A stretch of DNA of 64,000 nt from an uncultured Chloroflexia bacterium (GTDB lineage Bacteria > Chloroflexota > Limnocylindria > Limnocylindrales > CSP1-4), in the NCBI GenBank assembly GCA_963727005.1, contig CAVSEO010000001.1, positions 13,085-77,084 on the forward strand. The letters run 5' to 3'. A model generated the notes under the pieces. It ran no database searches, was not told where the DNA came from, and saw nothing but the letters and a program-made list of their open reading frames with translations. The translations under genes were made by a program, and so were the position numbers. The stretch's first letter is position 1, and each line of letters starts with the position of its first letter. Of the stretch, positions 19,109 to 64,000 are shown piece by piece.

Positions 19109-19109
19109 C

Positions 19110-46150: not shown

Positions 46151-46239
46151 ATTTTGCCCAAACGCAAATGCTCAGGAACGCCCTGGAAGCCGAAGGGGTA
46201 GTTGACCGTACGGGCCTCCGGTCGTGGAATTGAAGCCTG

Positions 46240-46862
46240 ATGCAAGTACCGTTTCCCGCCGCGAGTGTGCCCGCGCTCGGCCTCGTCACGGCCGCGGCCG
46301 CTCTCATCGTGGCGATCGTGAGCTCGCCGGCCTCCGGCTCGCCGACGCCCGCGCCGTCGGCACCGAGGTTCGCCAGTCGCGGAGCACCGGCGAGCCCGGC
46401 TTGGCCAGCCCGACCCCCGCGTTCCAGCTGGGGATCGTGCCGGGCAACTCGGCCGGCGCACCCCTTCCGACCGACGCCCCGGCCGCCCTGATCCCACTAC
46501 CGCACCTGCCGTCGTGCGGCGCCGAGGTGCTGTTCGAGGAGGACGTCGACATCAGCCCGGTCCCGACGGCGCCCGGCCCGGTCACCGATCCGACGGCCAA
46601 CCAGCAGGCGACCGATTGCCTCCTCTCGGCCTGGGAGAACGGACGGGCCGCCGTCCTGGTCACGTCCGCGATCAGCGACGAGGCCGATGAGATCTACTCC
46701 ATCTACCGTCTCCCCGGCGACGGGACGGTCGACGTGATCGTGCGCGTCCGTTCCCACTCCGATCAGACGGTCTCCTGGACGGAGAGGACCTGCCGTCAGC
46801 TCTCGGTGCAACAGGGCGCCGTGACGCCCGCCGATTGCGATCCCGAGGCGCCAATGAATTGA
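46240..46862 (+). CDS. hypothetical secreted protein; one frameshift as assembled near 46390
   Basis: Signal peptide MQVPFPAASVPALGLVTAAAALIVAIVSS in ORF 46240..46491. Mature part in ORF 46224..46862 (...CGAEVLFEEDVD...TDCLLSAWENGRAAVLVTS...). Confidence 0.5.
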
Positions 46863-47167
46863 TCGCGTCCCGTGGCCACCGGACGCGTTTCCCCATCCCA
46901 ATGGGTTGGGCCCGATTGACCAGTGAGGCTCAGGCATTGGAGCCCCACCGGGACCGGACATCATCGCCATCGACTTGGACGGCCCACGAGTCCAAGGTAT
47001 TTCGTATCCAGTCGGTCACCGCCGGCGTCAATCGCAGGCAGACAGGGACCACCCGATTCGGCGCATCACATCGCGGCCGCGTCACCCGCCCGCGCCGAGC
47101 GTCTCCGTCCGTCTCCAGCCGCTCCTGAACCGCGCCGTGGCGCGGGATCGAACGGCAAGGAGGAACG

Positions 47168-49122
47168 ATGTTCACAAGGTTCGCCAACGCCCCTACCGTC
47201 GAAGGGACTCGCAAGCGCTCGCCGCGAAAGGTGCGGCTGGTGTTCCTGGCGGCTGCGGCCGTGCTCGCTCTGTCGACGGCAATGACCGTCTTCGCGGCGA
47301 CCGCCCGGGTGTCAACGCCCGCGGCAGCGGCGCCCGGCGAGCAGATCGCCGTCAGCGGGACCGGCTTCGCGTCCGGCCAGTCGGGCAAGCTGACCTTCAA
47401 CGGAAGCGCCGTGACGACGTTCAAGGCGTCGTCCAGCGGCGCGTTCAACGTCCCATTCGTCGTGCCCAGCTGGGCCGTGGCGAATTCCACCGGCCGTATC
47501 TCCGCCAAGACGAGCTCGGATTCGCTGATCGCCACCACGACGCTCACGATCGCAGCGTCCGTCGTCCCGGCTGTCGGCCACCCGACGCTTGCCGCCCCCA
47601 CCCAGGCCATGCCCGGCACGCAGATCACACTCGATAGCGCCGGATTTGCGGCCGGCCAGACCGGCAACCTCTCGGTCAACGGCGTCGCCGTCACCACCTT
47701 CACCGCCGCGCCGGACGGCACGTTCAGCGTCCCGTTCGACATTCCGGCTACCACGACCATCGGCATGGGCCTCATCGCGGCCCGGGATGGGAACGGCGCC
47801 GCACTTGCCACTACCTGGCTGGGCATCGGAGTCGACGTAACCGGACCTATGATCTCCGTCCCGTCACAGGCCCCGGCCGGCTCCACGATCTGGGTCGACG
47901 GCCTCTTCTTCGGTCCCGGCCAGGCCGGGAACCTGACCTACAACGGCGCCGTGATCACCGAGTTCACGGCCGCGACCCGCGGTTCCTTCGGTGTCCAGTT
48001 CGTGATTCCGACCGGCGCCGCGAACGGCAGCACGGGCCGCATCTCGGCCAAGACCAGTTCCGGTTCGCTCCTGGCCACGACTACGCTGGTCATCGGGCCG
48101 GCCGCGCCGGCTCCGAACCCGACTTCACCGCCGGCCCCGACTCCGACCGCCACTCCGACGGTCCTGACGACACCGGGCCCCACGCCGACGCCGGCTCTAT
48201 CGGCCACGCCGACGGCCGCGGCCACGGCGACACCGACGGGCACGCCCACCGCGACGCCCGCGGCAACGCCAACTCGCGCACGCCCACCGCCACTCCGACT
48301 GCCACGCCGACGGCCACTCCGCCGCCCGCGAGCCTGCCCAACTTCAGCCACGTCTACGTGATCATCTTCGAGAACAAGGAGTACTCGAGCATCGTCGGCT
48401 CGAGCAGCGCCCCCTACATCAACTCCCTGATCTCGCAGTACGGCCTGTCCACCAACTTCACGGCCGAGCGGCATCCCTCGGAGCCCAACTACATCGCCCT
48501 CACGTCGGGCGGTACCCAGGGCATCACCGATGACGGCACCTACAACCTGGGCGTGAACAACGTCTTCGACCAGATCACCGCGTCCGGGCGGACGTGGAAG
48601 GCCTACCAGCAGGGCAACCCGGGCAACTGCTTCACCGGCTCTTCATCCTCGGCCGTCGTCGACGGCGTGGGCAAGTCCGGAGGCTACGTCCGCAAGCACA
48701 ACCCCGCGATCAGCTACACGAGCATCAGCGGCAACGCGGCCGCCTGCGCCAACATCACCAACCTCGCCAGCTTCGATCCGGCGGCGGCGAACTTCGAGTT
48801 CATCACGCCCAACATGATCAACGACATGCACGACGGAACCGTCGCCGACGGCGACAACTTCCTGAAGGCCTTCCTGCCGAAGATCACGGGCAGCCCCGCG
48901 TTCGCCAACTCCGTCGTCTACGTCACGTTCGACGAAGGCAGCACCAACGTCAGCGGCGGCGGCCACATCTTCACTCTCGCGATCACACCGAACATGACGC
49001 CGGGCTACAAGGCAACCGCGGCCTACACGCATTACTCGATGCTCCGAACCATCGAACAGGCGTGGAGCCTCCCGCCCCTCGGGAACGCGGCCTCCGCCTC
49101 GCCGATGAGCTTCCCCTACTGA
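47168..49122 (+). CDS. secreted multidomain protein: 3 Ig/IPT-like repeats, Pro/Thr linker, phosphoesterase-family (PF04185-like) domain; one frameshift as assembled in the linker near 48280
   Basis: AAGGAGGAA RBS and signal anchor. Three about 95-aa repeats (each ...G.GF..GQ.G.L..NG..VT.F.A...G.F.V.F..P...). Linker PTSPPAPTPTATPTVLTTPGPTPTPALSATPT.... After the frame change: HVYVIIFENKEYSS, PSEPNYIALTSG, TPNMINDMHDG, YVTFDEG. Confidence 0.75.
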
Positions 49123-49146
49123 GATCAGGCGTAACTCGCCAAAGCG

Positions 49147-49189
49147 AGAAGCGGCCCACCGGAGATCCGGTGGGCCGCTTCTTTCGTTG
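49147..49189 (+). terminator. strong intrinsic terminator (15-bp perfect stem, AGAT loop, T-tract), shared by two convergent genes
   Basis: GAAGCGGCCCACCGG-AGAT-CCGGTGGGCCGCTTC followed by TTTCGTTGT, 25 nt after the stop at 49122. ORF 48983..49729 reads through it, which supports an earlier true stop for that gene. Confidence 0.8.
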
Positions 49190-49206
49190 TCGAGCGGGGC
49201 CAGGCG

Positions 49207-49729
49207 TCAGCGGGCCGGGGAAACCTGTATCTCGAACCGGCCGATCAATCGATCGAAGCCATAGAGGTGTCCGGCGATGACCCCACACTGACCGTGCCGT
49301 CCGGCCGGGGCCAGCTCCAGCCGGTCCAGGACCGTCTGGAAGTCCTCCAGCCGCATCGAGGCGCCGTGCTCGGTCTCCGACTCGTCCTGCTTCGGCTTCG
49401 TCGGTCTCCTCGACGGTACCTCCGTCCTCCTCGCCGCCGATGCCGATCGCGGAGACCGTCTGCTCCGCCACGATCTCGTCGGCCCCTATCTCACCGCCCA
49501 ATTCGTCGGTTAGCCTGACCCTCAAGGCGTATTCCATTTCGAGCGGGCCTTCGACCTGGCCCGCCATTCCGGGTGCGGTCCGCCCGAGCGTGAACATCCC
49601 GGCCTGGACTATCGCATCGAGGGCCGCACCGACACAGGCCGGGCAACCATCGAATGTCAGAGCCGAGTAGGATCGGCACGCAGCTGTGGTCACGGTGCCC
49701 ATTCTCTGCTTCTCTCTGATATCTATCAT
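49207..49729 (-). CDS. hypothetical acidic Cys-containing protein; one frameshift as assembled near 49385
   Basis: N-terminal 115 aa as in ORF 48983..49729 (..AACRSYSALTFDGCPACVGAALDAIV...). After the acidic run, my translation of the +1 frame gives QDESETEHGASMRLEDFQTVLDRLELAPAGRHGQCGVIAGHLYGFDRLIGRFEIQVSPAR* with stop at 49207-49209, just before the terminator. Confidence 0.45.
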
Positions 49730-49837
49730 GTGCCGACTGTAGGCAAGCCAGATGAACAGGGGCTGAACACGGAGTTAACACCTCTACATAAACCGGCCCC
49801 GCCGCGTGACAGTCGCGGCGCCCCGATCGGGTATCTG

Positions 49838-50990
49838 GTGCGCCTGGCCCTCGTCGGGCTGGCGGTCGCGGCCTGCGGGTCTTCGCAGCCGAGCCCCCAG
49901 CCGAGCCCCGCCGGGTCGGTCCTCGAGCCGCCAACCGCGCTGCCTTCTCTCGCCCAGCCAAGCGCCTCCCTGTCGGACACGCCGCAGCCCTCGCCGCAGC
50001 CCGTCGCATCGACGGACGTGACCGCTTTCTACTACCTGTGGTACGGGACCCCGGCCCATGACGGCGCCTGGCGCCACTGGAATCAGACTCGCCCACAAGC
50101 CCCCGGACGACCTGGCCGCCACCTTCTATCCGGCTCGCGGCCCCTACAGCTCTCGTGACCCGGCGGTGTTGGCCAGTCAGATGCAAGAGCTGCGGTCCGC
50201 TCGCGTCGGCGTAATCGCCGTCAGCTGGTGGGGCCAGGGCGGATGGGAGGATCAGACGCTCGATGCCCTCTTTGCGGCCGCCGACGCCGCGGGGATTCGG
50301 ATCGCCTTTCACATGGAGCCGTACCAGGGTCAGACCGCCGCGTCGATCGCCGCCGACATCCACTACTTGCTCGGCCGCTTCGGGACGTCGCCGGCTCTGT
50401 TCAGGACGTCTCGTGCCACGTCGGGGAGCGCCTCTTCGGACCCGCGGCCCGTCTTCTACCTGTTCGGCAGCAGCAAGCTTCCCCCTGCCGACCTGAAGGC
50501 GGCAATCCAGGGCCTGAGAGGCACGCCGGACGACTCGATCATCATGGTCCACTCCCCGAAGGCCGTCTCGGCGACGCGCGTGGGAGCCGACGGGGTCTAC
50601 ACGTACGATGCGATGGCCTCGCCCGATTCCTTCGCCGTGCTGGCCGCGGACTGCGCCGCGGCCAGGATCATCTGCAGCCCGAGCGTGGCCGCGGGCTTCG
50701 ACAATCGCCAGGCCGTGGCGACGGGACAGATCGTGGTGGACCGGCAGAACGGCGCCCGCTACGACGCCATGTGGCAGGCGGCCGTGGCCGCTCATCCGAC
50801 GTGGGTGAGCGTGACGTCGTTCAACGAATGGCACGAGAGCACGCAGATCGAGCCCGCGACCGACTTCCAGGGCGGATCCAGGACCTACACGGGTTATGAA
50901 GGCGCGTTCGGAACGTCCGGGGCCGATGCCCCGAATGCGTACCTGGCCCGCACGGCGTACTGGGTCGGCCGGCTGGCGCCTGCCAACTGA
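49838..50990 (+). CDS. GH99-like (endo-alpha-mannosidase family) lipoprotein; one frameshift as assembled near 50085
   Basis: Lipobox LVGLAVAACGSS and Ser/Pro linker (QPSPQPSP). FYYLWYG...WRHWN in ORF 49730..50158, then PPDDLAATFYPARGPYSS, VIAVSWWGQG, IAFHMEPY and VTSFNEWHESTQIEP in ORF 50058..50990. Start could also be GTG 49730. Confidence 0.8.
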
Positions 50991-50999
50991 CAGCGGAGC

Positions 51000-52948
51000 C
51001 TAGGAGCCCGGAGGCGCCGGCAGATCCATCGGCGTACCGAGCGGGTCGGTGCCACCGCCGAGCGCCATCGGAACGAGAGGGCTGCCGATGCCGTAGGCCC
51101 AAACCTTGAGGTAGTAGACGCCCGATGCCAGGGGGGCGCCTCTCGCGTCCACGAAACTGAACGGCTTCGAACCCTGGGTCAGTCCATGGCGGGTGACGCC
51201 CGACGGCACGACGATCGCCCCATCGGCCGGGCCTCCGCCCACCGGGGAGTCCGAGCCTTCCTCTACCGTCGGGTCGCCCGCGCCGACCTGCCACGCCAGC
51301 ACGAGCTTGCCGCTGGCATCGCGCTGGTAGGCAGCGGCCCGGAACGCCGTGGGGCCGGTGCCGAGGACGACGCCCAGCGGATAGCGGTTGTCGACCTCGA
51401 CCGAGACGTCGACCGCATCCGCCTGAACCGGCGTGCCACCGCCGATCACGACCGTCGGTCCGGCCGCGGCCGCCCGAGCGGTCACCACCGCCCGAACCTG
51501 GACGAAGGACGATCCGGCCATGTTCGGCAGTGCCCAGAAGGCGGTGAAGGCCACGGCTCCGCCGGCCAGCCCGAGCGCCAGGATCGTGCGACCGCGACCG
51601 GATGTCATCGGATCGGCCGTCCGAGCGAATCGGGTCCGTTGGGGCGCATCTGTTCTGCCGTCCCAGGCCCCTCGCTGGGTCGCGCGGCCGCGGCTCCGCA
51701 GCCGATAGCCGGCAATTCCGAGCAACGCCAACAGGATCGCCGCAACCAGGACGGACACGATCAGGTCGGATGACGAACCGCGGCCGGGCGGGGTTCCACC
51801 GACCGCCCCTGCGGCCGCCCCACCGACGCGGGAAGGCTGCTCCGTGGGCGTAGGAGCCGCGGTGACCGCGGGAGTGGGGGTTGGGGCGTGGTTTACCGGA
51901 CCTGCGGCTCCGGTGAGCAGCGCCAGCACCGCCAGGTACCGCTCACCGTAGTTCTTGCTGGGCTCAACGTACGAGTTCTCGGTGTACTCGTTCCAGCTGA
52001 TCACGGCCATTCCGTCCGGGTTCGTGGCCAGAGCGTCGTCCCACGCCGCGGTGAGGGTCGCGCCGTTGCGCCGGTCGACGACAGTGGTCCCGCCGTTCAG
52101 ACGCGCGTCGAAGCCCGCGGCGGCCGGTGCGAGCCACAGCCCGTTGTCGTTGTGGACCGCCGTCGCGAGGTCGCCGAGGCGCTTCTGGTAGCCCGGCGTG
52201 GTCAATGGATCGGCCGACGACCAGTAGTAGGCGTCGCCGTCGAAGAGGGCGGCACGGGGCTGATACTCGGCCGCGCTTCGTTGTGAGCCGAGCAGCAGCA
52301 CCTTGTTCGGCGCACCGATCGAAGCGCGCACCGTTGAGATGTCGGCGTCGCTGAATCGCCACGTGCCCGACCAGATGACCGCCGGCTTGCCGAACAGGTC
52401 GAAGACCGGGTCGGATCCGTACTGGTCCTCGAACCACTGCAGGTCCGATTCCACCTGGGAGGCCGGAATCGGGTTTCGGTTGACGTCGAGGCCTTCGTAG
52501 ATGAGCACGAGCTTCAGGCCCTGGCTATGACACTCCGCCACAAGCTCGGACAGGGCCAGGTTCAAGTCGGGCGTGCTCTTCCAGGACACGATGAACGCGT
52601 CCACGCCGGACTCCTTCGCCCAGGTCACCTGCTGCTTTATCACCGCGGGGCTCGTGCTCGAGTACGCGCCAAGAACGGGGACGTCCGTCTTGGCGTGAGT
52701 CCAGCTCCCCGAGTTGAACCACATGTAGTAGTAAGCCAGGACGGGTGGGCGGGACGCGGCGCCCGGAGAGGGCCGGCGGCGCCCGAGGGACCGGCAGAGC
52801 CCGAAGGGGCGGCCGCGGAGGATGGCACCGGGCTGGTCGACGGCGCCAGCCCAAGAGAGCTGATTCCGGCGATCGCCAGGAGGAGCGGTATGGCCCGAGT
52901 CCAGCCCAGGTGTCCGGGCCCGGAGCCACCGCGTCGCGATCGATCCAC
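51000..52948 (-). CDS. membrane protein with GH99-like domain, Pro/Thr linker, TM segment, and a C-terminal part that may be a separate secreted beta-rich protein; one frameshift as assembled near 52750
   Basis: GTG 52948 after GAGG with signal anchor AIPLLLAIAGISSLG (frame of ORF 52640..53494). Then in ORF 51000..53069: LAYYYMWFNSGSW, FIVSWKS, LVLIYEG, VISWNEYTENSYVEPS, HAPTPTPAVTAAPTPTEQP, TM LIVSVLVAAILLALLGIAGY. An internal MTSGRGRTILALGLAGGAVAFTAFWA begins at an ATGA (about 51606-51609). Confidence 0.7.
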
Positions 52949-52965
52949 CGCCTCGACCCCGGGCG

Positions 52966-55879: not shown

Positions 55880-58800
55880 GGCCGGACCTCGTAGATCTGT
55901 ATGACGACCTGCGTCGACACCTTGCCGGACGCGTCTCGCGTCACGGCCGACTGCTGGTAGACCAGCGTGCCGTGATATCGGGTCACGTAGGTCTTGGTCA
56001 ACCCATCGAAGAAGGGCGAGCGCTGGGCCGACCAGATGTCCGTGGCGATGTACTGGATCTGGTTCAGCTGGAGCGCCCTGTCCGGGTTCACGATCGGGTC
56101 GTAGGCCGGGTTGCGGCGAATCGGGTTCGGGCTGACCGAGAGGCCGTAGGCCCGTCGCTGCCCGTAGAACTCGACGATGTTGGCCAGCGTGGGCCCGGTG
56201 GTCAGGAACGCCGCCCCCTGGGGGACGTTCTCCTTGATCCAGAGCCCCGCGTCGCGGCCACCCGGCAGGCCGCCGGTTCCGGCCAGTGACCCACTCATCG
56301 AGGGCGAGATCACGGCTTCCGCGGTCGGTATGGCGATGCTCATGAGCGTGATTGCGAGGAAGGCCGCGGTCGCGACAACGGGCGCCCGGCGCGAGTCTCC
56401 GAGGCGCTCAGGCAGGCGGCTGATGACCGGTCTCAGGGCGCTGCCTGTGAGGTCGGAAACCCTGCGCTGCAGTCTCAACCGGCGAGATGACGGGGCGGCA
56501 GCCGGCGGGGCGGCGGCCAGCAAGCGGTCGAAGGCCGGCCCGTAGGCCGCCCGCGAACTGGTCGCGGCCGTGAGCATGCGGTCGAATGACACCCCGACCA
56601 GGATCGCCCCAGCGGGCGCGATCGGCAGGAGGTACTGGAAGCCCTTGACCGGCCAGAGCTCGAAGAACGCGAGTGGAACCATGATCCAGGCCAGGATCAG
56701 CTTGTCCTCCCAGCCGCCGCGCCGGAGCACGTAGACAAGCCCGACGATGGCGGTGATGAGAACGAGAGGGCCCATCGCCCCGGGAAGGATGTCCGCGTAG
56801 AAGGTCCAGGTATGGTTCGGCTGCCGCAGTACCTCCCAGGCCACGAAGGAACCGGCGGCGTTGGTGCCCTTGCCGATCAAGATGGCGGCCGGATAGGGCG
56901 CCACGGCCATAACGAATAGGGCGATGGCGAGGATCTGGCGGCGAGCCGAGATCCGGATCTCGGGGGCGAGCAGAAGGAAGCTGATCGCGACGGGGACCAG
57001 GAGGATCGCCGTCTCCTTGGCGAGCACGGTGAGCCCGATGGCGAAGGCCGCGCCATACAACCAGCGGGACTGCCTGCTCCGAGCGTATCGGGCAAGCAGG
57101 TAGATGCTGAGCAGGAACAGCGTCGTTTCCGGCCCGTCGAGGAGGGCCTGCCGGGTGACGATTACGTGATAGGGCATCACGGCCATCACCGCCGCGGCGA
57201 TGAGCCCGACTCTGCGGTTGTACAGCAGCGCGCCGGTGGCGTACGCGAGGCCGATCGCGGCCAGGCCGAAGGCCACCGAGATCAGTCTGGGCGTGACATC
57301 GTTCACGCCGAACAGGCGGAACGGAATTGAGTTGAGGAACTGCACCAGCAGGGGATGAGCGCGGAAGATGGCGAACAACGGGCCATAGGTCGGGTCTCCG
57401 GCGAGCGACGCGCCCTGACCCATGTAGACCGCTTCGTCGTTGTTGAAGCCGATCGACCCGATGGCCCACAGCCGAACCGCCGCCCCTACCAGGAGCGCGG
57501 CGCTGAGGGCCAGCCAAACCCGGGCATTGGCCCGGACGCGACTCACGGCCCGGTCGCGGATCGCTCCGAAGTCGGGCACGAGAGGGAATCCGCCGGCCAG
57601 CCGGAGGCCGCCCATGGGTTCGATCGCGATGGCCTCGGCTATGCCCGCCGAGGCCGCCCCGCCGCCGCTCCTTTTCGGATCATCGTCTCGGGGAGGCTTC
57701 CTGCGCTTTCTACGGTCCGGGGAAGTTGACGCGACCGGAAAAGGGCGCTCACCTCCCGCGCTCGTGCCGTAGGTATCGCTGCCGACGGTTGTTGCGTAGG
57801 AGAAGGCCGCCGCGGCGACTTCGGCGTGGGCCTGTGCCGGAACCGGCAGACCGGCCGGGGCGTAGCCTCCGGCTTCGGCGGCCGCCACCGTGACGGGCGC
57901 CTCGGGCTCGATCGGGATTCCGACCGGCTCGCGGTCGTTGGTCTCGATCGGGATGCCGACCGGCTCGCGGTCGTCGTCGGTGCCGAGGATCAGCTTGGGG
58001 AGCAACTCGCCCCACTCGTGGCCGCGGACTCGCAGCCGCCACACCGTCACGTTCGAGATCGCCTGGGTGAGGAGCCGCCTCTCATGGTCTCGAAGCTGCT
58101 CGTAGTTCTCGCCTCCGATCACGAGGTTCGGGGCGAGAGTGGCGAACGGCGGGAAGCCGTAGGCGTCGTCGGTGTTCTCGATCAGCTGGTCGATCGCCGC
58201 CTCGAGCTCGACGCGTTCCTGGACTGGCTCGCCGCGCTCCATCAGGAAGACGTTGGCGATGGGCGTCTCGGTCGCGATGTGGGCCGGCAGCAGCTTGGTG
58301 ATGTGGTACTTGGGCGGGGGAACCATGATCTGGAGGACGCTGTTGATGGACATGATCGGCACGTTGAGGCTGCCGAGGCCCTTGCCCACCGTGCGGCCGC
58401 TCTTCGAGTGGACGCGGCTTTGCACCTGCAGCTGCATGCGCTTCCTGGGGCTGAGCGTGGAGGCGTCCACGGCGCGGGTCATGGTGTGATAGGAGAGCGT
58501 CATCGGCTTGGGGAAGGTCCGGACGAAGCCGGCCGGGTCGATGATCGCCATGTCGTCGGAGATGAACCGCCAGTGGCGCTCGCGCACGAGGTTGATGACG
58601 GTGCTCGTCTTGCCGGTGTCGGTCTGAGCGGAGAGCAGGGTGGCCTTGCCTTCGACTTCCAGCCCGGCCGAATGGAGCAGCACGTATCCCTTGGAGACGA
58701 GCACGAACCGCAGCAGCGCCTCGACGACGTTCGTGTAGAGGACGTGCCGGGACAGGCCCAGGAGCGGCGACGCGTCAATCGTGATGGGGTTGCCCATGGT

Positions 58801-59496
58801 CACGTTGAAGTCGGCCCCGAGGACGCCCAGGTGCTCCCTGTACGTGATGCGCTCGCCATCGCGCCGCATCCGGACTCGAAGGTTCGGCAGCGCGCCCACC
58901 CGGTGGACGCGGATTCGGATGTCCGGAGGGGTGGTGAGTTCGGTTCGGAAATAGGACAGTTCGGGAAGCTCGGAGTCCGAGTCCAGCCGGAGCAGGCCGC
59001 CGATGTCATAGCGGTACTTCGGGGCCTTCACGGCCGACCCGCCAAGCTCGGCCGAAGCGAGGTCGCCTTCCTTCTTTCGCCAGACCCATCCGTCCGAGAC
59101 GGCGAAGCGCAGGACGAAGAGGGCGGCGAGAGTGATGAGGTTCGACGACGCCGAGCCCAGCCGCCCGAAGTCGGTAAGCGCCCACAGCATCGGCACGCGC
59201 AGGCCCAGCAGGGCGACGTTCATGCCCGCGTAGGCGAGGTAGCGGACCGTGGCCCGTCCGGCGAAGCGACGACCCCTGAACGACCAGAACTCGTTGCCCG
59301 CGAAGTTCCAGGTGGTGGAGAAAGCCGTCGCCGCGAAGGCCGAAGCGACGAACCAGACGCGCAGGTTGTCGGTCAGGGCGACGTAGACGATCTCGTTGAC
59401 GAGGATGCCGCTGAATCCCACCAACAGGAACTTGGTGAGAGCGGCCACCCGAGGCGAGACCGATGCGGATCTGCCCTGGCGTGTGAGGACCTTCAT
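55876..59496 (-). CDS. 1206-codon fusion ORF: GtrA-like 4-TM module, HprK-like P-loop kinase domain, disordered linker, GT-C (ArnT/PMT_2-like) glycosyltransferase with periplasmic C-terminal domain
   Basis: Real start taken as ATG 59496 (MKVLTRQGRS...). The 371 codons upstream in ORF 55876..60609 overlap the GT2 gene out of frame. GtrA-like: FLLVGFSGILVNEIVYVAL...WNFAGNEFWSF. Kinase: VLLHSAGLEVEGKATLLSAQTDTGKTSTVINLV...RFISDDMAII. GT-C: AVRLWAIGSIGFNNDEAVYMGQG...LAKETAILLVP plus about 11 further hydrophobic segments. ATGA overlap with the downstream phosphoesterase. Confidence 0.8.
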   Translation of the reverse strand: MKVLTRQGRSASVSPRVAALTKFLLVGFSGILVNEIVYVALTDNLRVWFVASAFAATAFSTTWNFAGNEFWSFRGRRFAGRATVRYLAYAGMNVALLGLRVPMLWALTDFGRLGSASSNLITLAALFVLRFAVSDGWVWRKKEGDLASAELGGSAVKAPKYRYDIGGLLRLDSDSELPELSYFRTELTTPPDIRIRVHRVGALPNLRVRMRRDGERITYREHLGVLGADFNVTMGNPITIDASPLLGLSRHVLYTNVVEALLRFVLVSKGYVLLHSAGLEVEGKATLLSAQTDTGKTSTVINLVRERHWRFISDDMAIIDPAGFVRTFPKPMTLSYHTMTRAVDASTLSPRKRMQLQVQSRVHSKSGRTVGKGLGSLNVPIMSINSVLQIMVPPPKYHITKLLPAHIATETPIANVFLMERGEPVQERVELEAAIDQLIENTDDAYGFPPFATLAPNLVIGGENYEQLRDHERRLLTQAISNVTVWRLRVRGHEWGELLPKLILGTDDDREPVGIPIETNDREPVGIPIEPEAPVTVAAAEAGGYAPAGLPVPAQAHAEVAAAAFSYATTVGSDTYGTSAGGERPFPVASTSPDRRKRRKPPRDDDPKRSGGGAASAGIAEAIAIEPMGGLRLAGGFPLVPDFGAIRDRAVSRVRANARVWLALSAALLVGAAVRLWAIGSIGFNNDEAVYMGQGASLAGDPTYGPLFAIFRAHPLLVQFLNSIPFRLFGVNDVTPRLISVAFGLAAIGLAYATGALLYNRRVGLIAAAVMAVMPYHVIVTRQALLDGPETTLFLLSIYLLARYARSRQSRWLYGAAFAIGLTVLAKETAILLVPVAISFLLLAPEIRISARRQILAIALFVMAVAPYPAAILIGKGTNAAGSFVAWEVLRQPNHTWTFYADILPGAMGPLVLITAIVGLVYVLRRGGWEDKLILAWIMVPLAFFELWPVKGFQYLLPIAPAGAILVGVSFDRMLTAATSSRAAYGPAFDRLLAAAPPAAAPSSRRLRLQRRVSDLTGSALRPVISRLPERLGDSRRAPVVATAAFLAITLMSIAIPTAEAVISPSMSGSLAGTGGLPGGRDAGLWIKENVPQGAAFLTTGPTLANIVEFYGQRRAYGLSVSPNPIRRNPAYDPIVNPDRALQLNQIQYIATDIWSAQRSPFFDGLTKTYVTRYHGTLVYQQSAVTRDASGKVSTQVVIQIYEVRP
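57907..57978 (-). repeat. tandem 36-nt duplication (2 mismatches in the first 32 nt, last 4 nt diverged) encoding (D)REPVGIPIE twice in the fusion-protein linker
   Basis: CTCGATCGGGATTCCGACCGGCTCGCGGTCGTTGGT followed by CTCGATCGGGATGCCGACCGGCTCGCGGTCGTCGTC. Confidence 0.85.
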
Positions 59497-59618
59497 TGAG
59501 AGCACTCCCCGAAGATGCGGTGGCGGATGGGACGAGCTGGACGATGACTGGATGGTCGGAGCGAGAGGATTGGCGCTTGGGCGGATGGAATGGTGCGAAA
59601 CCTCACGTCGGCCATGAG

Positions 59619-60377
59619 CTACGTCCGGCTCGGTCTGGCCACCGGGACACGGCCTCGCACGGCCGCCCATCGAAGCGCCACGACGACCTTGAACGCCTCC
59701 AGGACGATCGACCGGCTCATCTTCGAGGCGCCCTCTCGGCGTTCCTCGAACGTGATCGGGACCTCCAGGATGCGGGCGCCGAGACGGTGAGCCCGGAAAG
59801 TCATCTCTATCTGGAATGCGTAGCCCCCGGCGTGCACGTCGTTGAGGTCGATGGACTCGAGGAGATCCACGCGCCACGCCTTGAAGCCACCGGTGAGGTC
59901 GCGCTCGGGCAGGCGCAGGACGGCCCTGGCGAAAATGCTGCCGCCCTTGCTGATGAATCTCCGGACGGGATTCCAGCGCGGGATGACACCGCCCGGGACG
60001 TATCGGCTGCCCAGGACCAGGTCTGCGCGACCGTCGATGATCGGCTCGAGGAGGGAAGGCAGGTAGCGCACTGGATGGCTGAAGTCCGCGTCCATCTGGA
60101 CGACGATCCCGGCCCCTCTGGCTTCCACGCTGCAGAACCCGTCCACGTAGGCTCGACCGAGGCCCTGCTTGGATTCGCGGTGGAGCACGGCGATGTTGGG
60201 CTTCGCCGCCGCCATCTGGTCGCCCAGAACGCCCGTGCCGTCCGGCGAGTTGTCGTCGACGATCAAGATCGAGGCCTCGGGCACCGTCCCCAGAATCGCC
60301 TCGGTTATCGGTCCCAGGTTGTCCTTCTCGTTGTATGTGGGCAGGACCACCCAGATGTGTGAATCGGCGGGGCGCAC
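59619..60377 (-). CDS. GT2 polyprenol-phosphate glycosyltransferase (Ppm1/DPM1/GtrB-like)
   Basis: VVLPTYNEKDNL, ILIVDDNSPDGT, VQMDADFSHP, GSRYVPGG, GFKAW. Typical dolichol/polyprenol-phosphate mannose (or glucose) synthase signature. Confidence 0.9.
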   Translation of the reverse strand: MRPADSHIWVVLPTYNEKDNLGPITEAILGTVPEASILIVDDNSPDGTGVLGDQMAAAKPNIAVLHRESKQGLGRAYVDGFCSVEARGAGIVVQMDADFSHPVRYLPSLLEPIIDGRADLVLGSRYVPGGVIPRWNPVRRFISKGGSIFARAVLRLPERDLTGGFKAWRVDLLESIDLNDVHAGGYAFQIEMTFRAHRLGARILEVPITFEERREGASKMSRSIVLEAFKVVVALRWAAVRGRVPVARPSRT

Positions 60378-60842
60378 CGGATCCTCCTCTTTCGTGGCAG
60401 ACCAGTAGTCGGGCTAGGGCTAGATGGCGTCGGGCGGCACCGCGCGTCCGATTTCGAGGTCGGACTTTACGGCCAACGCGCCCCCAGAAGATGCACAGGG
60501 CCGATTTGTTGCGCCCGGTGTGCAACCGTCGCGGCAGGCGGAAGGGGGGACCGGCGTACCAGCTGAAAGGGCGGGAACAATCCCGTCTGAACGAGTAGTC
60601 AGGCGCCACCCCTGAGGGTCGGCCACGACGGGCAGGTCAGATTCCCCGAACCGGGCACCCGGGGATACGCACGCTCCCACCCCAATGGAGCGGCCCTTCT
60701 GGACGGTAGCGGAGGCCGGATGGGGCGAGGCATACTCAGTCGGTTCGAGCCCCGTGGGCATCCGCTGCCGCATGCGGATTCAGGGGTACCGTCGCCTCGA
60801 CCACCCAGCCCGTCAGCACCGCAACGCCATTGGAGCTTCCAC

Positions 60843-62405
60843 ATGTCCAGCTTCCGACCCGGACGGAGGACCCGAGCCCTGCCGCAGATCGCCCGCCTGG
60901 TTGCGGTCGCGTCTGTCGTGGCTCTGATCGTGGCGTTCACGTCTTCCGCGAACGCGGCCACGTCGGTTTCGCTCAAGCCGGTCGCCGACTCCTGGGTCAA
61001 TGCCCAGAGCCCTGGAACGAATTACGGCTCCAGCACCTCCCTTCGCCTCGATGGCTCGCCGGTCTGGAAGGCCTACCTCCGTTTTGACATGGGCTCGACC
61101 CTCGGAACGATCACCGGCGCCTCGCTGAAGCTCTACCCCAACAGCTCCAGCAAGGCGGGCCTGTCGGTCCATCGAGTCGCAAGCACGACCTGGTCGGAAA
61201 GCTCCGTCACGGCCGCAAGCGCGCCCGCCATCGACGCGGCAGCCGTTTCCTCCGGTCCGCTGACGGCCGGACGCGCCGCCAGCATCGACGTCGGTGCGCT
61301 GGTCAGCGGCAACGGTCTCGTGAGTCTCGCCCTGACGGACAACGACGCCACCGCGATCAACCTGGCCAGTCGCGAGTCGTCGCACCCGCCCCTTCTTGTC
61401 CTGACCGTGGTTTCCTCCACTCCCACCCCGACCCCGACCCGACTCCGACGCCGACGCCAACCCCGACTCCAACGCCGACCCCGACTCCCACCCCGACGCC
61501 AACCCCGACTCCGACCCCAACGCCAACCCCGACGCCGACTCCGACCCCCACGCCTACCCCGACCCCCGACGCCCACTCCGACCCCGACCGCGCCTTCAGG
61601 CGGTCCGGTGAGGGCCGCTTTCTACTACCCGTGGTTCCCGGAGGCCTGGAACCAATCCGGCCTGGACCCGTTCACGCACTACCATCCTTCGGCCGGCTTC
61701 TACGACGGCTCGAACAAGTCGATCGTCGCCCAGCAGATCCAGGCAATGCAGTACGGCAAGATCAGCGTGGGTATCGCCTCCTGGTGGGGCCAGGGCTCGG
61801 CGACCGACGCCAGGTTCCCAACCCTGCTTTCCGTGGCCGCCGGGACCGGCTTCCACTGGGCTTTCTACTACGAGCCCGAAGGCACGACCGACCCCTCGCC
61901 AAGCCAGATCGCCTCGGACCTCGCCTACATCAATAGCCGGTACGCCTCGGACCCGAGCGTGTACAAGATCAACGGACGCCCCGTCGTCTTCGTCTATGCC
62001 GGGCCCTCGGACGGCTGCGGGATGGCGAGTCGATGGGCCCAGGGCAACGCTTCGGCCCAGGACTACATCGTCCTGAAGGTCTTCGCCGGCTACCTGGGCT
62101 GCGCCGACCAGCCGAACAGCTGGCATCAGTACTCGCCGGCCGTGGCCGAAGACCACCAGGCCGGCCGCAGCTTCAGCATCAGCCCCGGGTTCTGGCTCGC
62201 GACGGGCAGCGTGCGACTGGCCCGAGACCTGACTCGCTGGCAGGCCGATATCCGGGCCATGGTTGCCTCGGGTGAGCCGTGGCAGCTTGTCACCACCTTC
62301 AATGAATGGGGCGAGGGGACCGCCGTGGAGAGCGCCACGGAATGGGCCAGTGCCTCGGGCTACGGGTCTTACCTGGACGCGCTCCACAACGACGGGGCGC
62401 CGTAG
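60843..62405 (+). CDS. secreted DNRLRE-domain, (Pro-Thr)n linker, GH99-like domain protein; two compensating frameshifts as assembled inside the linker
   Basis: Signal peptide [26 protein letters not shown]-type domain ([28 protein letters not shown]...AYLRFD). The linker reads TPTPTPT then [14 protein letters not shown]... (out-of-frame PT repeat) then TPTPTPT. C-terminal part has [44 protein letters not shown]. Confidence 0.8.
61419..61589 (+). repeat. (CCGACN)n microsatellite-like array encoding a (Pro-Thr)n linker
   Basis: About 170 nt of ACC/ACG/ACT-CCG/CCC/CCA alternation. Antisense ORFs translate to GVGVGV. Confidence 0.9.
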
Positions 62406-62549
62406 GTCCGCACCATGGATCGGTGTAACCACCAGGTAGAACGGCCTACTAAATAGTCACTACTTCACTGCACTATCCCGCTTGGCACCACGACGCCACC
62501 TTCCTTCTCGCCGGGCAGTCGTGCCGTCCAGCCAAAGGGGAAGCACGCA

Positions 62550-64000
62550 ATGCGAAGAGTCGAAGCCGGGCCGGTCCCGAGCGCGCGCTCGATTGTGCCG
62601 TTCGGCCGGAACGCCCGGCTCCGGTGGGCTCGCAGGACCAAGGCAATGCTGGTGGTGGCCTTCGCGCTGACATGGCTCGTGACGTTCCCGTCCGTGATGC
62701 GCCAGGTGGCCGCGGCCTCCGATCCCGTGATCGCCGCCGCCGGCGACATCGCCTGCGATCCGAACGACTCGCATTTCAACAACGGCATCGGTAGCGGTAG
62801 CGGCTCGCAGGACACCTGCCGGCAGGGTGCCGTCTCCAACCTGCTGGTCGGCGGCGGCTACAGCGCCGTCCTCTCGCTGGGTGACAACCAGTACTACTGC
62901 GGCAGCCTCGCGGCATTCCAGGCTTCCTACGACGCGAGCTGGGGGCGTGTCAAGGCGATCACCCACCCGGTTGTCGGCAACCACGAGTACCTGACCAGCG
63001 GGGCTGTCGACTGCACAACCGCGAACGCGAATGCCGCGGGTTACTTCGCCTATTTCGGGGCTGCGGCAGGCAGCCAGGGCGCGGGTTACTACAGCTATGA
63101 CCTCGGCGCGTGGCACCTGATCGCGATCAACTCGAACTGCTCGAGTGCCGGCGGCTGCTCGGCCACTTCGGCCCAGGGCAAGTGGCTGGCCGCCGACCTG
63201 GCCGCGCACCAGAACCAGTGCATCCTGGCCTACTGGCACATTCCGCTATTCAGCTCCGGTGGCCGGGCCAACAACAACACGAAGTCGATCTGGACGCAGC
63301 TGTACGCGGCTCACGCCGACCTGGTCCTCGACGGCCACGACCACATCTACGAGCGGTTTGCCCCTCAGACGCCGGCCGGCGTTGCGGACCCCGTCAACGG
63401 AATCACCGAGATCACCGTTGGCACGGGCGGCGCGAACCACACCTCGATCGCCGCGGTGGCGGCCAATAGCGTCGTTCGCGATACGACGTCGTTCGGCGTT
63501 CTCCGGCTGACTCTCCACAGCGGCAGCTACAACTGGCAGTTCCTCCCGGTGGACGGCAGCTTCACCGACAGCGGGTCGGGCACTTGCCACAACGTCTCGG
63601 GGGCCCCGACGCCGACCCCGACGCCCAACGCCGACGCCAACCCCGACCCCGACGCCCACCCCGACGCCAACCCCGACCCCGACGCCGACGCCGACCCCGA
63701 CACCAACCCCGACCCCAACGCCAACCCCAACCCCGACGCCGACGCCGACCCCGACACCAACCCCGACCCCAACGCCAACCCCGACCCCAACGCCAACCCC
63801 GACGCCAACCCCGACCCCGACCCCAACGCCAACCCCGACCCCAACGCCGACCCCGACGCCGACACCCACGCCGACCCCCACCCCGACGCCAACGCCGACA
63901 CCGACGCCGACCCCCACACCGACACCGACGCCGACACCCACACCCACACCGACGCCAACCCCAACACCCACACCGACGCCAACCCCAACACCCACGCCGA
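62550..64000 (+). CDS. secreted calcineurin-like metallophosphoesterase with very long (Pro-Thr)n C-terminal linker; open at the window end
   Basis: Absent from the track because there is no stop before position 64000. My translation from ATG 62550 (RBS AAAGGGGA) gives a signal anchor MLVVAFALTWLVTF, then AAGDIACD, LSLGDNQYY, VVGNHEY, ILAYWHIPLFS, LDGHDHIYERF, VGTGGANH. From 63606 it reads APTPTPTP, then the out-of-frame reading NADANPDPDAHPD.... Confidence 0.85.
   Translation, partial: MRRVEAGPVPSARSIVPFGRNARLRWARRTKAMLVVAFALTWLVTFPSVMRQVAAASDPVIAAAGDIACDPNDSHFNNGIGSGSGSQDTCRQGAVSNLLVGGGYSAVLSLGDNQYYCGSLAAFQASYDASWGRVKAITHPVVGNHEYLTSGAVDCTTANANAAGYFAYFGAAAGSQGAGYYSYDLGAWHLIAINSNCSSAGGCSATSAQGKWLAADLAAHQNQCILAYWHIPLFSSGGRANNNTKSIWTQLYAAHADLVLDGHDHIYERFAPQTPAGVADPVNGITEITVGTGGANHTSIAAVAANSVVRDTTSFGVLRLTLHSGSYNWQFLPVDGSFTDSGSGTCHNVSGAPTPTPTPNADANPDPDAHPDANPDPDADADPDTNPDPNANPNPDADADPDTNPDPNANPDPNANPDANPDPDPNANPDPNADPDADTHADPHPDANADTDADPHTDTDADTHTHTDANPNTHTDANPNTHA
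63606..64000 (+). repeat. (CCGACN)n array of at least 395 nt encoding a (Pro-Thr)n linker, truncated by the window end
   Basis: Continuous ccgac[g/c]cc[a/g]ac... periodicity to the last base. Source of the 249-aa GVGVGV antisense ORF 63246..63995. Confidence 0.9.

Follow-up and report, generated by a model that had tools for sequence, protein, structure and literature searches.

A conserved cassette predicted to couple lipid-linked sugar transfer to membrane-anchored ecto-enzymes in Candidatus Limnocylindrales

The window, a stretch of 64,000 nucleotides from an uncultured Chloroflexia bacterium of soil, carries at its end (46224-64000) a region whose nearest relatives belong to Candidatus Limnocylindrales (Chloroflexota). 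Domain annotation using Pfam and NCBIfam identified three GH99-type proteins, two PF04185 phosphoesterases, one purple-acid-phosphatase (PAP)-like enzyme, a DPMS-like GT2, and a 1206-aa fusion of GtrA, HprK/PEPCK-like kinase, and GT-C domains. This inventory agrees with a preliminary description of the sequence, the third phosphoesterase being a weak Metallophos match. Signal peptides or transmembrane (TM) segments were predicted in 10 of the 12 region products, as expected from the earlier remark that nearly all of them are exported or membrane-anchored.

The GT2 gene (59619-60377, minus strand) is an intact ORF encoding a soluble protein of 252 aa (PF00535, E 1.8e-25; dN/dS = 0.07). The protein matched the P. 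furiosus dolichol-P-mannose synthase (DPMS; PDB: 5mlz) at E 4e-32, compared with 3e-5 for ArnC, while NCBIfam matches (AglJ, PpgS, and others) were all well under their cut-offs. Judged by sequence, it is a DPMS/Ppm1-like polyprenyl-phosphate hexosyltransferase, and its similarity to DPMS together with the GH99 family label makes mannose, from GDP-mannose, the most likely predicted sugar.

The fusion is encoded by an uninterrupted ORF (55876-59496, minus strand) in which Pfam recognized GtrA and PMT_2. Its four-helix GtrA/DPMS-TM membrane domain spans aa 22-139, and the family profile matched the TM domain of DPMS in the PDB at E 1.5e-14. A two-lobed HprK/PEPCK-like P-loop domain follows (aa ~160-500, Walker A at 290-297). 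Its AF2 model (pLDDT 84.9) retrieved PEPCK (E 1e-6) and HprK/P (E 3e-4) in Foldseek, the NCBIfam model HprK_rel_A matched at E 5e-8, and TDTGKT and SDD were unchanged in 60 sequences. By sequence and fold, it is a cytoplasmic P-loop domain of the HprK/PEPCK superfamily, its Walker A and SDD motifs being intact. A disordered linker then leads to the GT-C transferase (aa ~660-1000), whose DEAVY motif at 687-691 is invariant, and the protein ends in an alpha/beta outer domain. The GT-C domain matched PMT_2 at E 2.5e-21 with a weak PMT (PF02366) match alongside, and its profile reached ArnT at 3.3e-11 vs PMT at 2e-4 in the PDB. Foldseek searches with the AF2 model (pLDDT 85.8) returned STT3 and ArnT at TM ~0.6, with the protein-glycosylating enzymes STT3, AglB, and PglB among the top structural matches and PMT ranking 27th. 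The domain has a true GT-C fold, with ArnT and STT3 as closer relatives than PMT.

Three co-directional, closely packed genes continue the operon downstream of the fusion. The first (54364-55879, minus strand) encodes a PF04185 phosphoesterase of the AcpA/PLC type that has a signal peptide and a PT/PS insert and is anchored by a C-terminal TM segment; PF04185 scored 208 bits over positions 63-355, plus positions 1-31 in another frame, and the orthologue matched AcpA (PDB: 2d1g) at E 7.5e-30 with QENxxFDxYF retained. The second (52966-54364, minus strand) encodes an Ig-like/CarboxypepD_reg-like beta-sandwich protein that likewise has a signal peptide and is anchored at its C terminus by a TM segment; it gave weak Big_3_5 and CarboxypepD_reg matches, has 465 aa in relatives, and is uninterrupted in loci L001-L003. 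The third (51605-52948, minus strand) encodes a divergent TIM-barrel protein resembling GH99, GH71, and WbsX, which contains a short PT linker and has a TM segment at its N terminus and a TM anchor at its C terminus, a topology kept across phyla; PF16317 scored 36.7 bits with weaker GH71 and WbsX matches, and the orthologue, which retains the NE..E motif, matched BtGH99 (PDB: 4acz) at E 5e-7. The junctions of the chain are a 122-nt gap between GT2 and fusion, an overlap of the fusion stop with the phosphoesterase start at 55876-55879, a TAATG stop/start overlap at 54362-54366, and a 17-nt gap (52966 to 52948) before the GH99-like gene. All had been described correctly except the second, which reads GTGA and not ATGA.

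The region holds further genes. A small exported protein (46224-46862, plus strand) without a Pfam match corresponds to a 208-aa protein of locus L003 that bears an N-terminal hydrophobic segment; tblastn aligned L003 residues 52-207 to 46389-46856 (84% identity), and the first ~50 residues fail to align in this frame. The Ig-PF04185 gene (47168-49122, plus strand) specifies three Ig-like repeats behind a signal peptide and, beyond a PT/A linker, a PF04185 domain lying in the second frame (E 2.7e-27); the protein has 623 aa in relatives, and the intact L003 orthologue matches the window in two frames. Two-frame tblastn matches were also obtained for an acidic 164-aa protein without a signal peptide (49210-49702, minus strand), found in this clade only and without a Pfam match, and for a GH99 lipoprotein with a P/S/Q-rich tether (49817-50990, plus strand; PF16317, 187.8 bits). 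The orthologue of the latter matched human MANEA (PDB: 6zdc) at E 2e-46 with NEWHExTQIE conserved, so that by homology it is a canonical GH99 (endo-alpha-1,2-mannosidase family). A canonical GH99 with its catalytic motif fits a mannose glycan. What had been taken for one gene starting at 51000 is two, the GH99-like gene described above and a gene for a protein of ~200 aa that combines an N-terminal TM segment with a beta-rich ectodomain (51000-51608, minus strand; 73% identity to a 216-aa L003 protein by tblastn). The literal sequence merges this second gene into the upstream ORF; in L002 and L003, its equivalent is a gene of its own, overlapping by 4 nt. On the other side of the GT2, a CBM96-GH99 protein (60843-62405, plus strand) combines a signal peptide, a CBM96/DNRLRE domain (CBM96, E 1e-25; DNRLRE by NCBIfam), a (TP)n linker, and a GH99 domain (E 8e-15, above the Pfam cut-off). 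A PAP-like metallophosphoesterase with a PT tract (62550-64000, plus strand) is cut by the window end; Metallophos matched at E 5.6e-4 and 20.8 bits, slightly below the 21.5 cut-off, Metallophos_C at E 1.2e-3, and GDxxxD/GDNxY/GNHE/GHDH motifs can be read in the sequence. In its L003 orthologue, a CBM96 domain and a TM anchor follow. From their distribution, the GH99 lipoprotein and the CBM96-GH99, Ig-PF04185, and PAP-like-PT-CBM96 proteins are apparently clade-specific or more variable accessories.

Several of these genes are not the continuous ORFs they had been taken for. By searching with intact orthologues (tblastn) and aligning the DNA to a contig of 96.6% identity, we found at least 11 small frame-breaking indels across nine region genes: within the linker of 47168-49122 (about 48270-48289), near 49392 in 49210-49702, at about 50085-50104 in 49817-50990, at about 52775 and about 51630-51680 in the GH99-like gene, as 1-nt insertions at 53639 (vs L001) in the beta-sandwich gene and at 55516 in the phosphoesterase gene, as two mutually compensating errors in C-runs of 60843-62405 (about 61438 and about 61565), and at about 63625 in 62550-64000. 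If real, these breaks would make most region genes pseudogenes in this genome. Such decay would suit the sheer number of breaks, with about 12 others in the neighboring ABC genes and at least one in cydAB, their uneven distribution (none within the 4.4 kb of the GT2 and fusion), and the position of 53639 and 55516 outside homopolymers. However, the same genes are intact in all relatives at 67-97% identity, dN/dS past the breaks at 55516 and 53639 (0.07 and 0.18 vs L001) is in line with that of intact genes, several breaks fall in C-runs of PT repeats, as is typical of sequencing error, and cydAB, which are essential-type genes, are likewise hit. Because the relatives' genes are intact and dN/dS is unchanged past the breaks (0.07-0.3 for all genes, post-break parts included), we consider decay very improbable and the breaks most likely to be sequencing or assembly errors. 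Even so, the broken frames of nine genes in the literal sequence mean that the system need not be functional in this very genome.

Comparison of 40 related loci from three phyla (Chloroflexota, Actinomycetota, and Dormibacterota) showed that the order fusion, PF04185 phosphoesterase, beta-sandwich protein, GH99-like protein is kept in 36, the three downstream genes being individually present in 38, 39, and 38 loci, respectively. Whether the GT2, fusion, PF04185, and GH99-like genes occur together had been proposed as a check; they do, to a degree that greatly exceeds chance. A literature search returned no paper on this cassette, and the operon is apparently undescribed yet widely conserved. 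Among relatives, the GT2, GtrA, kinase, and GT-C parts are found split or fused in several combinations: all four form one protein in P0044 and P0045, and locus L086 has a GT2-GtrA-kinase protein with a separate GT-C. Such fusions tie the parts to one another. Paralogous GtrA-kinase and GT-C pairs also exist without phosphoesterase and GH99 partners, and the ecto-enzymes would therefore be dispensable for the core chemistry. A horizontal origin of the region, for which a test had been proposed, was not supported. Its GC content does not stand out from the window, codon usage correlates with the rest of the window (RSCU r = 0.987; control 0.982), and the flanks, including the MarR-ABC unit, are syntenic in relatives, as is the region itself.

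The conserved order and strand, the start/stop overlaps, and the C-terminal anchors, which are kept on all three downstream proteins in every lineage examined, suggest that this triad acts at the cell's own membrane. We think it fairly probable, from homology and gene order, that the system makes a lipid-linked sugar, transfers the sugar outside the cell, and builds or remodels a surface glycan. On the inner face, the GT2 would charge polyprenyl phosphate with a hexose, most likely mannose taken from GDP-mannose; the GtrA/DPMS-TM domain may serve as membrane partner of the GT2, as flippase, or both; and the GT-C domain would hand this sugar over to an acceptor on the outer side. An ATP-dependent step may come from the kinase-like domain, which could regulate the synthase or phosphorylate either the carrier lipid or the sugar, and the anchored phosphoesterase and GH99-like enzyme would work on this same glycoconjugate close to the membrane. 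The end product is probably a surface glycan that contains mannose, be it a lipoglycan, a wall polymer, or a glycoprotein.

Alternatively, the secreted proteins with GH99, CBM96, or phosphoesterase domains might scavenge organic phosphate and the (phospho)mannan of foreign fungi or yeasts, being chance neighbors of a glycosylation operon. The lipoprotein is indeed a relative of canonical endo-alpha-1,2-mannosidases/mannanases, CBM96 modules and long linkers typify secreted polysaccharide-active enzymes, and the accessory genes differ between clades, but the fixed position of the triad right after the fusion in three phyla, its overlapping codons, and its anchors render such scavenging highly unlikely. 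That the ecto-enzymes could act on exogenous substrates is nevertheless a point against surface glycan assembly as the main reading.

Compatible with that main reading is an envelope-remodeling regulon for phosphate limitation, in which the two PF04185 enzymes and the PAP-like enzyme free the phosphate bound in phospholipids or wall polymers, the glycosylation machine makes glycoconjugates without phosphate to replace them, and a neighboring two-component system is in control. The PF04185 family includes phosphate-starvation phospholipases C. Three phosphoesterases occur in the region, PF04185 and the PAP/Metallophos protein accompany the cassette in distant lineages too, and an OmpR-type response regulator and a HisKA kinase adjoin it in L003, L086, and L087. 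Against this, pst/phoU genes and a recognized Pho box were absent from the inspected loci, and the kinase domain and GH99 enzymes are left unexplained; we regard this regulon as quite unlikely.

Six region proteins carry Pro/Thr or Pro/Ser linkers. An uninterrupted P/T run of 43 codons (61439-61567) reaches ~55 codons with its in-frame PT flanks, and a run of 125 codons (63625-63999) reaches at least 130 with its flank, so the counts reported earlier hold at the DNA level; in the literal sequence, the long runs and their catalytic domains lie in different frames. These linkers had led to the proposal that a Pmt-like GT-C O-mannosylates the region's own secreted enzymes with polyprenyl-phosphate-mannose from a Ppm1-like GT2, GH99 trimming the O-mannan. 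Consistent with this are the DPMS-like GT2, the linkers themselves, the weak PF02366 match, and the protein-glycosylating enzymes among the best structural matches. However, the GT-C domain is far closer to ArnT than to PMT and lacks a PMT_4TMC match in Pfam, and the nearest relatives, in Limnocylindrales, lie outside the Actinomycetota that framed the proposal. Moreover, no PT/PS stretches were found in the triad proteins of distant full-operon cassettes, such linkers in cassette proteins being limited to the subclade of the window, and further PT linkers lie outside the region (16343-16543 and 35271-35387) in an unrelated M23 peptidase and a PQQ beta-propeller. Given these distributions, the linkers are unlikely to be dedicated substrates and look like a genome-wide linker style. 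Dedicated O-mannosylation is weakly supported, since the GT-C resembles ArnT/STT3 and not PMT and distant cassettes lack the linkers, and we consider it unlikely; of the self-contained system first envisaged, lipid-linked sugar synthesis and outside transfer are supported, whereas the linkers are unlikely dedicated targets.

By its domain content, the system falls in the class of GtrB/GtrA/GT-C "three-component" glycosylation systems, exemplified by Shigella GtrABC, Listeria GtlA/GtcA/GtlB, and B. subtilis CsbB/GtcA/YfhO (PMC8035078). It shares with them a GT2 for the polyprenyl-phosphate sugar, a GtrA-family membrane domain, and an outside-acting GT-C, encoded by adjacent, co-oriented genes. 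In contrast, the window has GtrA and GT-C in one polypeptide, joined through the HprK/PEPCK-like domain, its GT2 is of the soluble DPMS type, and its operon goes on with the anchored triad. With P. furiosus DPMS, it has homology in both the GT2 catalytic domain (also homologous to actinobacterial Ppm1) and the four-helix TM domain. These parts are contiguous in 1400-aa relatives but on separate polypeptides in the window, where sugar and lipid specificity are predicted. Actinobacterial protein O-mannosylation by Ppm1 and Pmt (GT39), as in Streptomyces coelicolor (PMC5882110), follows the same donor logic of polyprenyl-phosphate-mannose and a GT-C, with Pro/Thr-rich exported proteins close by here. 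Unlike Pmt (PMT + PMT_4TMC), the window GT-C is of the PMT_2/ArnT/STT3 type, the kinase domain and ecto-enzyme partners have no counterpart there, and the window's relatives are Chloroflexota.

ArnT (GT83), the lipid A aminoarabinose transferase, is the bacterial enzyme that comes closest to the GT-C domain in both structure and sequence (5ezm/5f15; TM ~0.62-0.65) and shares its C-terminal outer domain. Unlike in the ArnT system, the GT2 resembles DPMS and not ArnC, and ArnA, ArnB, ArnD, ArnE, and ArnF were not found near the locus. The cassette-carrying lineages are generally considered to lack lipid A. The kinase-like domain has the fold of HprK/P and PEPCK and the H...G-x4-GK[ST] and [AS]DD motifs of HprK/P and HprK-related peptide kinases (TIGR04352, ScmC / PF27840), but it sits between the membrane domains of a glycosylation enzyme, with no HPr, PqqD, or RiPP context around it. 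Among the GH99-type proteins, the lipoprotein is a clear member of the family of human MANEA and Bacteroides GH99 with its catalytic motif conserved, and the CBM96-linked copy passes the Pfam cut-off, whereas the operon-core copy is distant, scores similarly against GH71 and WbsX, and is anchored in the membrane at both ends.

Six-frame reading with GC3 and codon scores, together with Pfam and NCBIfam searches, bore out the gene content that a preliminary description had proposed for 46.2-64.0 kb of the window. On the minus strand, Pfam and NCBIfam identified a soluble GT2 (59619-60377), which is followed by a 1206-aa fusion of a GtrA/DPMS_TM domain, a kinase-like central domain, and a PMT_2 GT-C domain (55876-59496). 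Downstream lie the genes for an anchored PF04185 phosphoesterase (54364-55879), an Ig-like/CarboxypepD_reg-like beta-sandwich protein (52966-54364), a weakly matching GH99/GH71/WbsX-like protein (51605-52948), and a small TM protein (51000-51608). We refer to the first five of these genes as the cassette. The plus strand encodes an Ig-repeat-PT-PF04185 protein (47168-49122), a GH99 lipoprotein (49817-50990), a CBM96-(TP)n-GH99 protein (60843-62405), and a purple-acid-phosphatase-like metallophosphoesterase that begins at 62550 and runs into a very long Pro/Thr (PT) run at the window end. Judged on intact orthologues, 10 of the 12 products carry a signal peptide or TM segments. The junctions quoted previously were right, except that the overlap at 55876-55879 reads GTGA and not ATGA. 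Between the Ig-PF04185 and GH99 lipoprotein genes, on the opposite strand, lies a gene for an acidic 164-aa protein (49210-49702, minus strand), which is conserved, has the N-terminal Cys motif CRSYSALTFDGCPAC, and showed neither a signal peptide nor a family match. A promoter and terminator scan of 46-64 kb returned nothing exceeding shuffle expectation, and Rfam found no RNA families in the region; the sole Rfam match in the window was a TPP riboswitch (RF00059) at 6786-6893 on the plus strand (65.3 bits, E 1.4e-10).

Most of the genes in the region are not continuous ORFs as written. Frame-breaking indels lie near 48.27, 49.39, 50.09, 51.65, 52.775, 53.639, 55.516, 61.44, 61.565, and 63.625 kb. 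Using tblastn with intact orthologues from the related locus L003, we found two-frame matches in the window for the Ig-PF04185, 164-aa, GH99 lipoprotein, beta-sandwich, and anchored PF04185 proteins. DNA alignment with L001, a contig 96.6% identical to the window, placed insertions of one base at 55516 and at 53639 and of 2 nt at 52775; owing to indels near 51.65 kb, the GH99-like gene reads through into its neighbour. The CBM96-GH99 gene has a stretch of 43 pure P/T codons (61439-61567) whose frame differs from that of the PT codons on either side; the shift follows from a C4-to-C3 change at one end of the linker and a C5 run at the other. A longer P/T stretch of at least 125 codons (63625-63999) in the metallophosphoesterase gene does not share a frame with the catalytic domain; the L003 orthologue has its (TP)n linker in frame, a CBM96 domain, and a TM anchor. 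Since these runs lie in other frames, the PT counts of the preliminary description, correct in the DNA, hold at that level only: the literal proteins are not PT there and read RLRRRRQ... and NPDPDA....

Further breaks lie outside this region. Two genes for ABC exporters (ABC_membrane and ABC_tran) beside MarR, at 41700-45450 on the minus strand, contain about 12 frame switches, with the Walker A motif, the LSGGQ signature, and the subsequent strands each in differing frames, a density far above that of the adjoining intact 3.6-kb fusion gene. The cydA/cydB genes, outside the region under study (17680-20130, plus strand), contain a frame error too: the ORF at 18198-20126 holds CydA positions 216-418 and all of CydB in one frame, with the N-terminal half of CydA elsewhere. 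The genes are intact in all relatives examined, and dN/dS against L001 was 0.07 and 0.18 past two mapped breaks, compared with 0.07 for the intact GT2 and 0.19 for the fusion. Because the relatives are intact and dN/dS is unchanged past the breaks, we think that the breaks are probably artefacts of assembly or sequencing. That they are real and mark a very recent inactivation of the window copy strikes us as quite improbable, and pseudogenisation specific to the island is unlikely, given the breaks in the ABC and cydAB genes and the unchanged dN/dS. Elsewhere, the C-terminal third of P0078, the homologue in Streptomyces diastatochromogenes (locus L007), aligned as low-complexity Arg/Pro-rich text, so the record may carry a frame error or a decaying gene; the PF04185 and GH71/99-like genes are nonetheless present downstream of it.

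A scan of one genome per species across 185,579 species yielded 438 confirmed relatives of the fusion, which puts the cassette in hundreds of genomes at species level. The best 78 of these 438 loci were taken with 10-kb flanks and searched by tblastn using 15 proteins of the L003 locus, and counts were made over the 40 loci in which the fusion is full-length and followed by at least 4.5 kb of sequence. A PF04185 gene lay directly downstream on the same strand in 38 of the 40 loci, a beta-sandwich gene was found in 39, and a GH99-like gene in 38. The co-occurrence of GT2, fusion, PF04185, and GH99 genes put forward earlier was thus upheld, with the downstream trio present in that order in 36/40 loci and the GT2 gene as a separate tblastn match in 31/40. 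The metallophosphoesterase was present in 35 and the CBM96 protein in 36 of the same 40 loci. Cassette carriers include Limnocylindria, other Chloroflexota, Dormibacterota, and Actinomycetota (Streptosporangiaceae, Acidimicrobiaceae, Nitriliruptorales, Jatrophihabitantaceae, and Streptomyces diastatochromogenes). In every lineage examined, all three downstream proteins have an N-terminal signal or TM segment and a C-terminal TM anchor. At least three ways of joining the GT2, GtrA, kinase, and GT-C modules were found, namely a single GT2-GtrA-kinase-GT-C protein of about 1400 aa, a GT2-GtrA-kinase protein with a separate GT-C, and, as in the window, a GT2 with a GtrA-kinase-GT-C protein; this range of fusions shows that the four act jointly.

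A paralogous GtrA-kinase gene of about 45% identity is also present in Limnocylindria. One related locus (L068, 7510-11563) has it immediately downstream of a PMT_2 GT-C gene and another (L064, 8011-11548) downstream of an unannotated 593-aa gene, both in a housekeeping setting with miaA or hflX nearby. No phosphoesterase or GH99 partners were found near these two paralogues and a PF04185 gene was present in just 3 of 19 paralogous loci, so we rejected an obligatory kinase-phosphoesterase pairing as a general rule.

The locus showed no sign of the horizontal origin considered in the preliminary description. G+C is about 69% across the window (0.66-0.70 inside the region and 0.65-0.73 outside), and the RSCU correlation between the region and the rest of the window was 0.987, compared with 0.982 for the control. 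From the MarR-ABC genes through the metallophosphoesterase, the order is syntenic in L003, in a second related locus (L005), and in many genome loci, and synteny in the flanks, MarR-ABC among them, extends to relatives of 67-90% identity. On G+C, RSCU, and the syntenic flanks, we rejected a recent transfer; the region is not a new arrival but a locus conserved in the chromosome. Actinomycetota are not its closest relatives: the best matches of the fusion are Candidatus Limnocylindrales MAG proteins (97%, 90%, and 79% identity), of the phylum Chloroflexota. In four relatives (L003 at 1-3333, L005, L008, and L009), the metallophosphoesterase is followed by a second, separate GtrA of 163 aa, then a 666-aa PMT_2 and YkcB_C GT-C, and then an OmpR-type response regulator with a HisKA kinase, all corresponding to sequence beyond the window's right end. 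L003 has an additional 348-aa metallophosphoesterase paralogue that is missing from the window.

The GT2 matched PF00535 (E 1.8e-25) and aligned over residues 8-239 with the Pyrococcus furiosus dolichol-phosphate mannose synthase (DPMS; 5mlz) at E 4e-32, compared with 3e-5 for ArnC; it has the features of a GT-A-fold GT2 of the polyprenyl-phosphate glycosyltransferase type, and its scores against NCBIfam equivalogs were all far under the cut-offs. The GtrA domain of the fusion (aa 22-139) matched PF04138 over the full model length (E 1e-15), and the GtrA family profile matched the TM domain of the DPMS structure (E 1.5e-14). Because the GT2 is similar to DPMS and GtrA to its TM domain, the pair looks like a split archaeal-type DPMS at the sequence level.

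The central domain of the fusion (aa ~160-500) was modelled by AF2 as a two-lobe fold (pLDDT 84.9), for which Foldseek returned ATP-dependent PEP carboxykinases (E 1e-6, TM 0.41-0.44) and the HprK/P structures 1jb1 and 1kkm (E 3e-4). The H-x-A...TDTGKT...SDD residues are invariant, in keeping with an HprK-type P-loop core with Walker A and catalytic DD motifs, and Hpr_kinase_C was matched weakly in a relative (E 0.004). A weak likeness to ScmC (PF27840) was seen in precomputed annotations and in NCBIfam, where the domain scored 16 bits against a cut-off of 125; TIGR04352 (HprK-related kinase A) gave 32 bits against a cut-off of 200. With these scores under the cut-offs, and no HPr, PqqD, or RiPP genes in the loci inspected, we rejected membership in the curated HprK/P family, and the domain is related to HprK/P at the superfamily level only. 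Its family is a small one, with 151 clusters at E<=1e-30 in a search of 1.84 billion representatives, and hit lengths suggest that it occurs alone or behind GtrA- or GT2-GtrA-sized N-terminal extensions. From its position between the GtrA and GT-C membrane domains, we infer that it lies on the cytoplasmic side. The disordered linker between kinase and GT-C (fusion aa ~523-552; window ~57841-57930, minus strand) contains the tandem peptide repeat DDREPVGIPIETNDREPVGIPIE, present in 2-3 copies in relatives.

The GT-C domain matched PMT_2 (E 2.5e-21), and D687, E688, and Y691 are invariant, consistent with a polytopic GT-C fold bearing an acidic motif in its first outer loop. Its AF2 model (pLDDT 85.8) retrieved STT3 and ArnT in Foldseek (E 1e-10, TM ~0.6). 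The preliminary description had taken a Pmt/GT39-type transferase as its precedent, a link that these comparisons contradict: PF02366 scored 37 bits versus 77 for PMT_2, PMT_4TMC was not among the Pfam matches of the fusion, the sequence profile favoured ArnT (3e-11) over PMT (2e-4), and PMT1/2 ranked 27th in Foldseek with a TM of 0.30. Profile and model alike thus place the domain much nearer STT3/ArnT than Pmt1/2. The ArnT likeness that had been named as a possible objection is there, but its usual partners are not: ArnA/B/D/E/F were absent from the annotated neighbours at 8 loci and the GT2 is of DPMS and not ArnC type, which rules out the ArnT lipid A pathway.

Among the ecto-enzymes, the anchored PF04185 protein scored 208 bits, with an N-terminal piece in another frame, and its orthologue aligned with AcpA (2d1g) at E 7.5e-30 across QENNSFDRYF, with GSS opposite GPS; the protein is AcpA/PLC-like and matches the family over its full length, with the N-terminal QENxSFD metal motif and the Ser/Thr nucleophile region kept. 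Assignment to GH99 was based on PF16317 above the gathering score plus the catalytic Glu pair (NEWHEGTQIE motif). By alignment, the GH99 lipoprotein is a clear relative of endo-alpha-1,2-mannosidases with the catalytic motif (187.8 bits; aligned to 6zdc with NEWHESTQIE); the CBM96-GH99 protein scored 55.3 bits and has NEWGEGT. The GH99-like copy in the operon core, with 36.7 bits against a cut-off of 33 and NE(Y/F)TEN aligned to 4acz with the Glu pair kept, is a borderline, remote candidate member. That the ecto-enzymes purely scavenge foreign mannan is at odds with the conserved operon and the membrane anchors, and we consider it very unlikely.

In the three downstream proteins, PT/PS-rich stretches are confined to the window's own subclade; since distant cassettes lack them, we rejected the idea that PT linkers are conserved with the cassette. 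Linkers of PT type are found as well in an M23 peptidase (linker 16343-16543, gene 16355-17443, minus strand) and in a PQQ/BamB-like beta-propeller protein (linker 35271-35387, gene 35055-36632, plus strand) and are thus a genome-wide feature of exported proteins here. The earlier model, in which a Pmt-like GT-C mannosylates PT linkers, is therefore unlikely, as the GT-C is not PMT-like and the linkers are neither conserved in nor specific to the cassette.

We favour, with moderate confidence, a DPMS-like GT2/GtrA/GT-C surface glycosylation system with a kinase-like step and anchored editing enzymes. The GT2 would charge polyprenyl phosphate with a hexose, most likely mannose, to judge by the likeness to DPMS and the GH99 partners; the GtrA/DPMS-TM domain would act as membrane partner and/or flippase; and the GT-C would pass the sugar on to an acceptor outside the membrane (a lipoglycan, a wall polymer, or a glycoprotein). 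The kinase-like domain may provide a regulatory or substrate-phosphorylating step. The three ecto-proteins, presumably co-transcribed with the machine and tethered in the same membrane, would include a phosphoesterase and a GH99-like enzyme that edit the product at the membrane surface. Compatible with this model, though improbable in our estimation, is a role in envelope remodelling under phosphate starvation, toward which the three phosphoesterases and the two-component systems nearby point. The natural acceptor of ArnT is a phosphate group, and a more speculative idea, to which we give little credence, is that the kinase, the ArnT-like GT-C, and the anchored phosphoesterase run a phosphate-linked glycosylation or a carrier-lipid cycle. 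In one version, the carrier, sugar, or acceptor would be phosphorylated inside the cell and the sugar joined outside via or beside that phosphate, to be removed or edited by the ecto-phosphoesterase and GH99-like enzyme. In the other, the phosphoesterase would strip phosphate from spent polyprenyl phosphate outside and the kinase would re-phosphorylate polyprenol inside, giving a self-contained carrier-lipid cycle within the glycosyltransferase. Either, if true, would be a mode of surface glycosylation for which we found no description.

The cell envelopes of Limnocylindria, soil Actinomycetota, and Dormibacterota, which are abundant and for the most part uncultured, are to our knowledge almost unexplored. 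The literature searched, with incomplete coverage, described general three-component systems, Ppm1/Pmt, and a differing Actinoplanes GtrA cluster; neither the cassette nor any kinase module within a transmembrane glycosylation system was described there. Three features appear to be new: a glycosylation machine with a kinase-like module built in, its obligate pairing in one operon with the anchored PF04185 phosphoesterase, beta-sandwich protein, and GH99-like protein, and the distribution in little-studied soil lineages. The cassette offers a testable entry point: two genes should suffice for the lipid-linked sugar, the soluble domains of the three anchored ecto-enzymes lend themselves to assay, and some actinomycete carriers can be cultivated. 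Should the kinase prove to act on the carrier lipid or on the sugar, textbook accounts of extracytoplasmic glycosylation would gain a new step. Compared with known systems, the window system is neither Ppm1/Pmt (GT39) nor Arn because their defining features were tested and differ: the window GT-C is not of the PMT type of the former (PF02366 plus PMT_4TMC), and the window GT2 is not of the ArnC type of the latter, whose ArnA/B/D/E/F partners were absent from the annotated neighbours at the 8 loci. In contrast, all three sequence and fold features of the GT2/GtrA/GT-C transmembrane glycosylation class are shared, and the window system, as judged from sequence and predicted structure, belongs to this extracytoplasmic glycosylation class.
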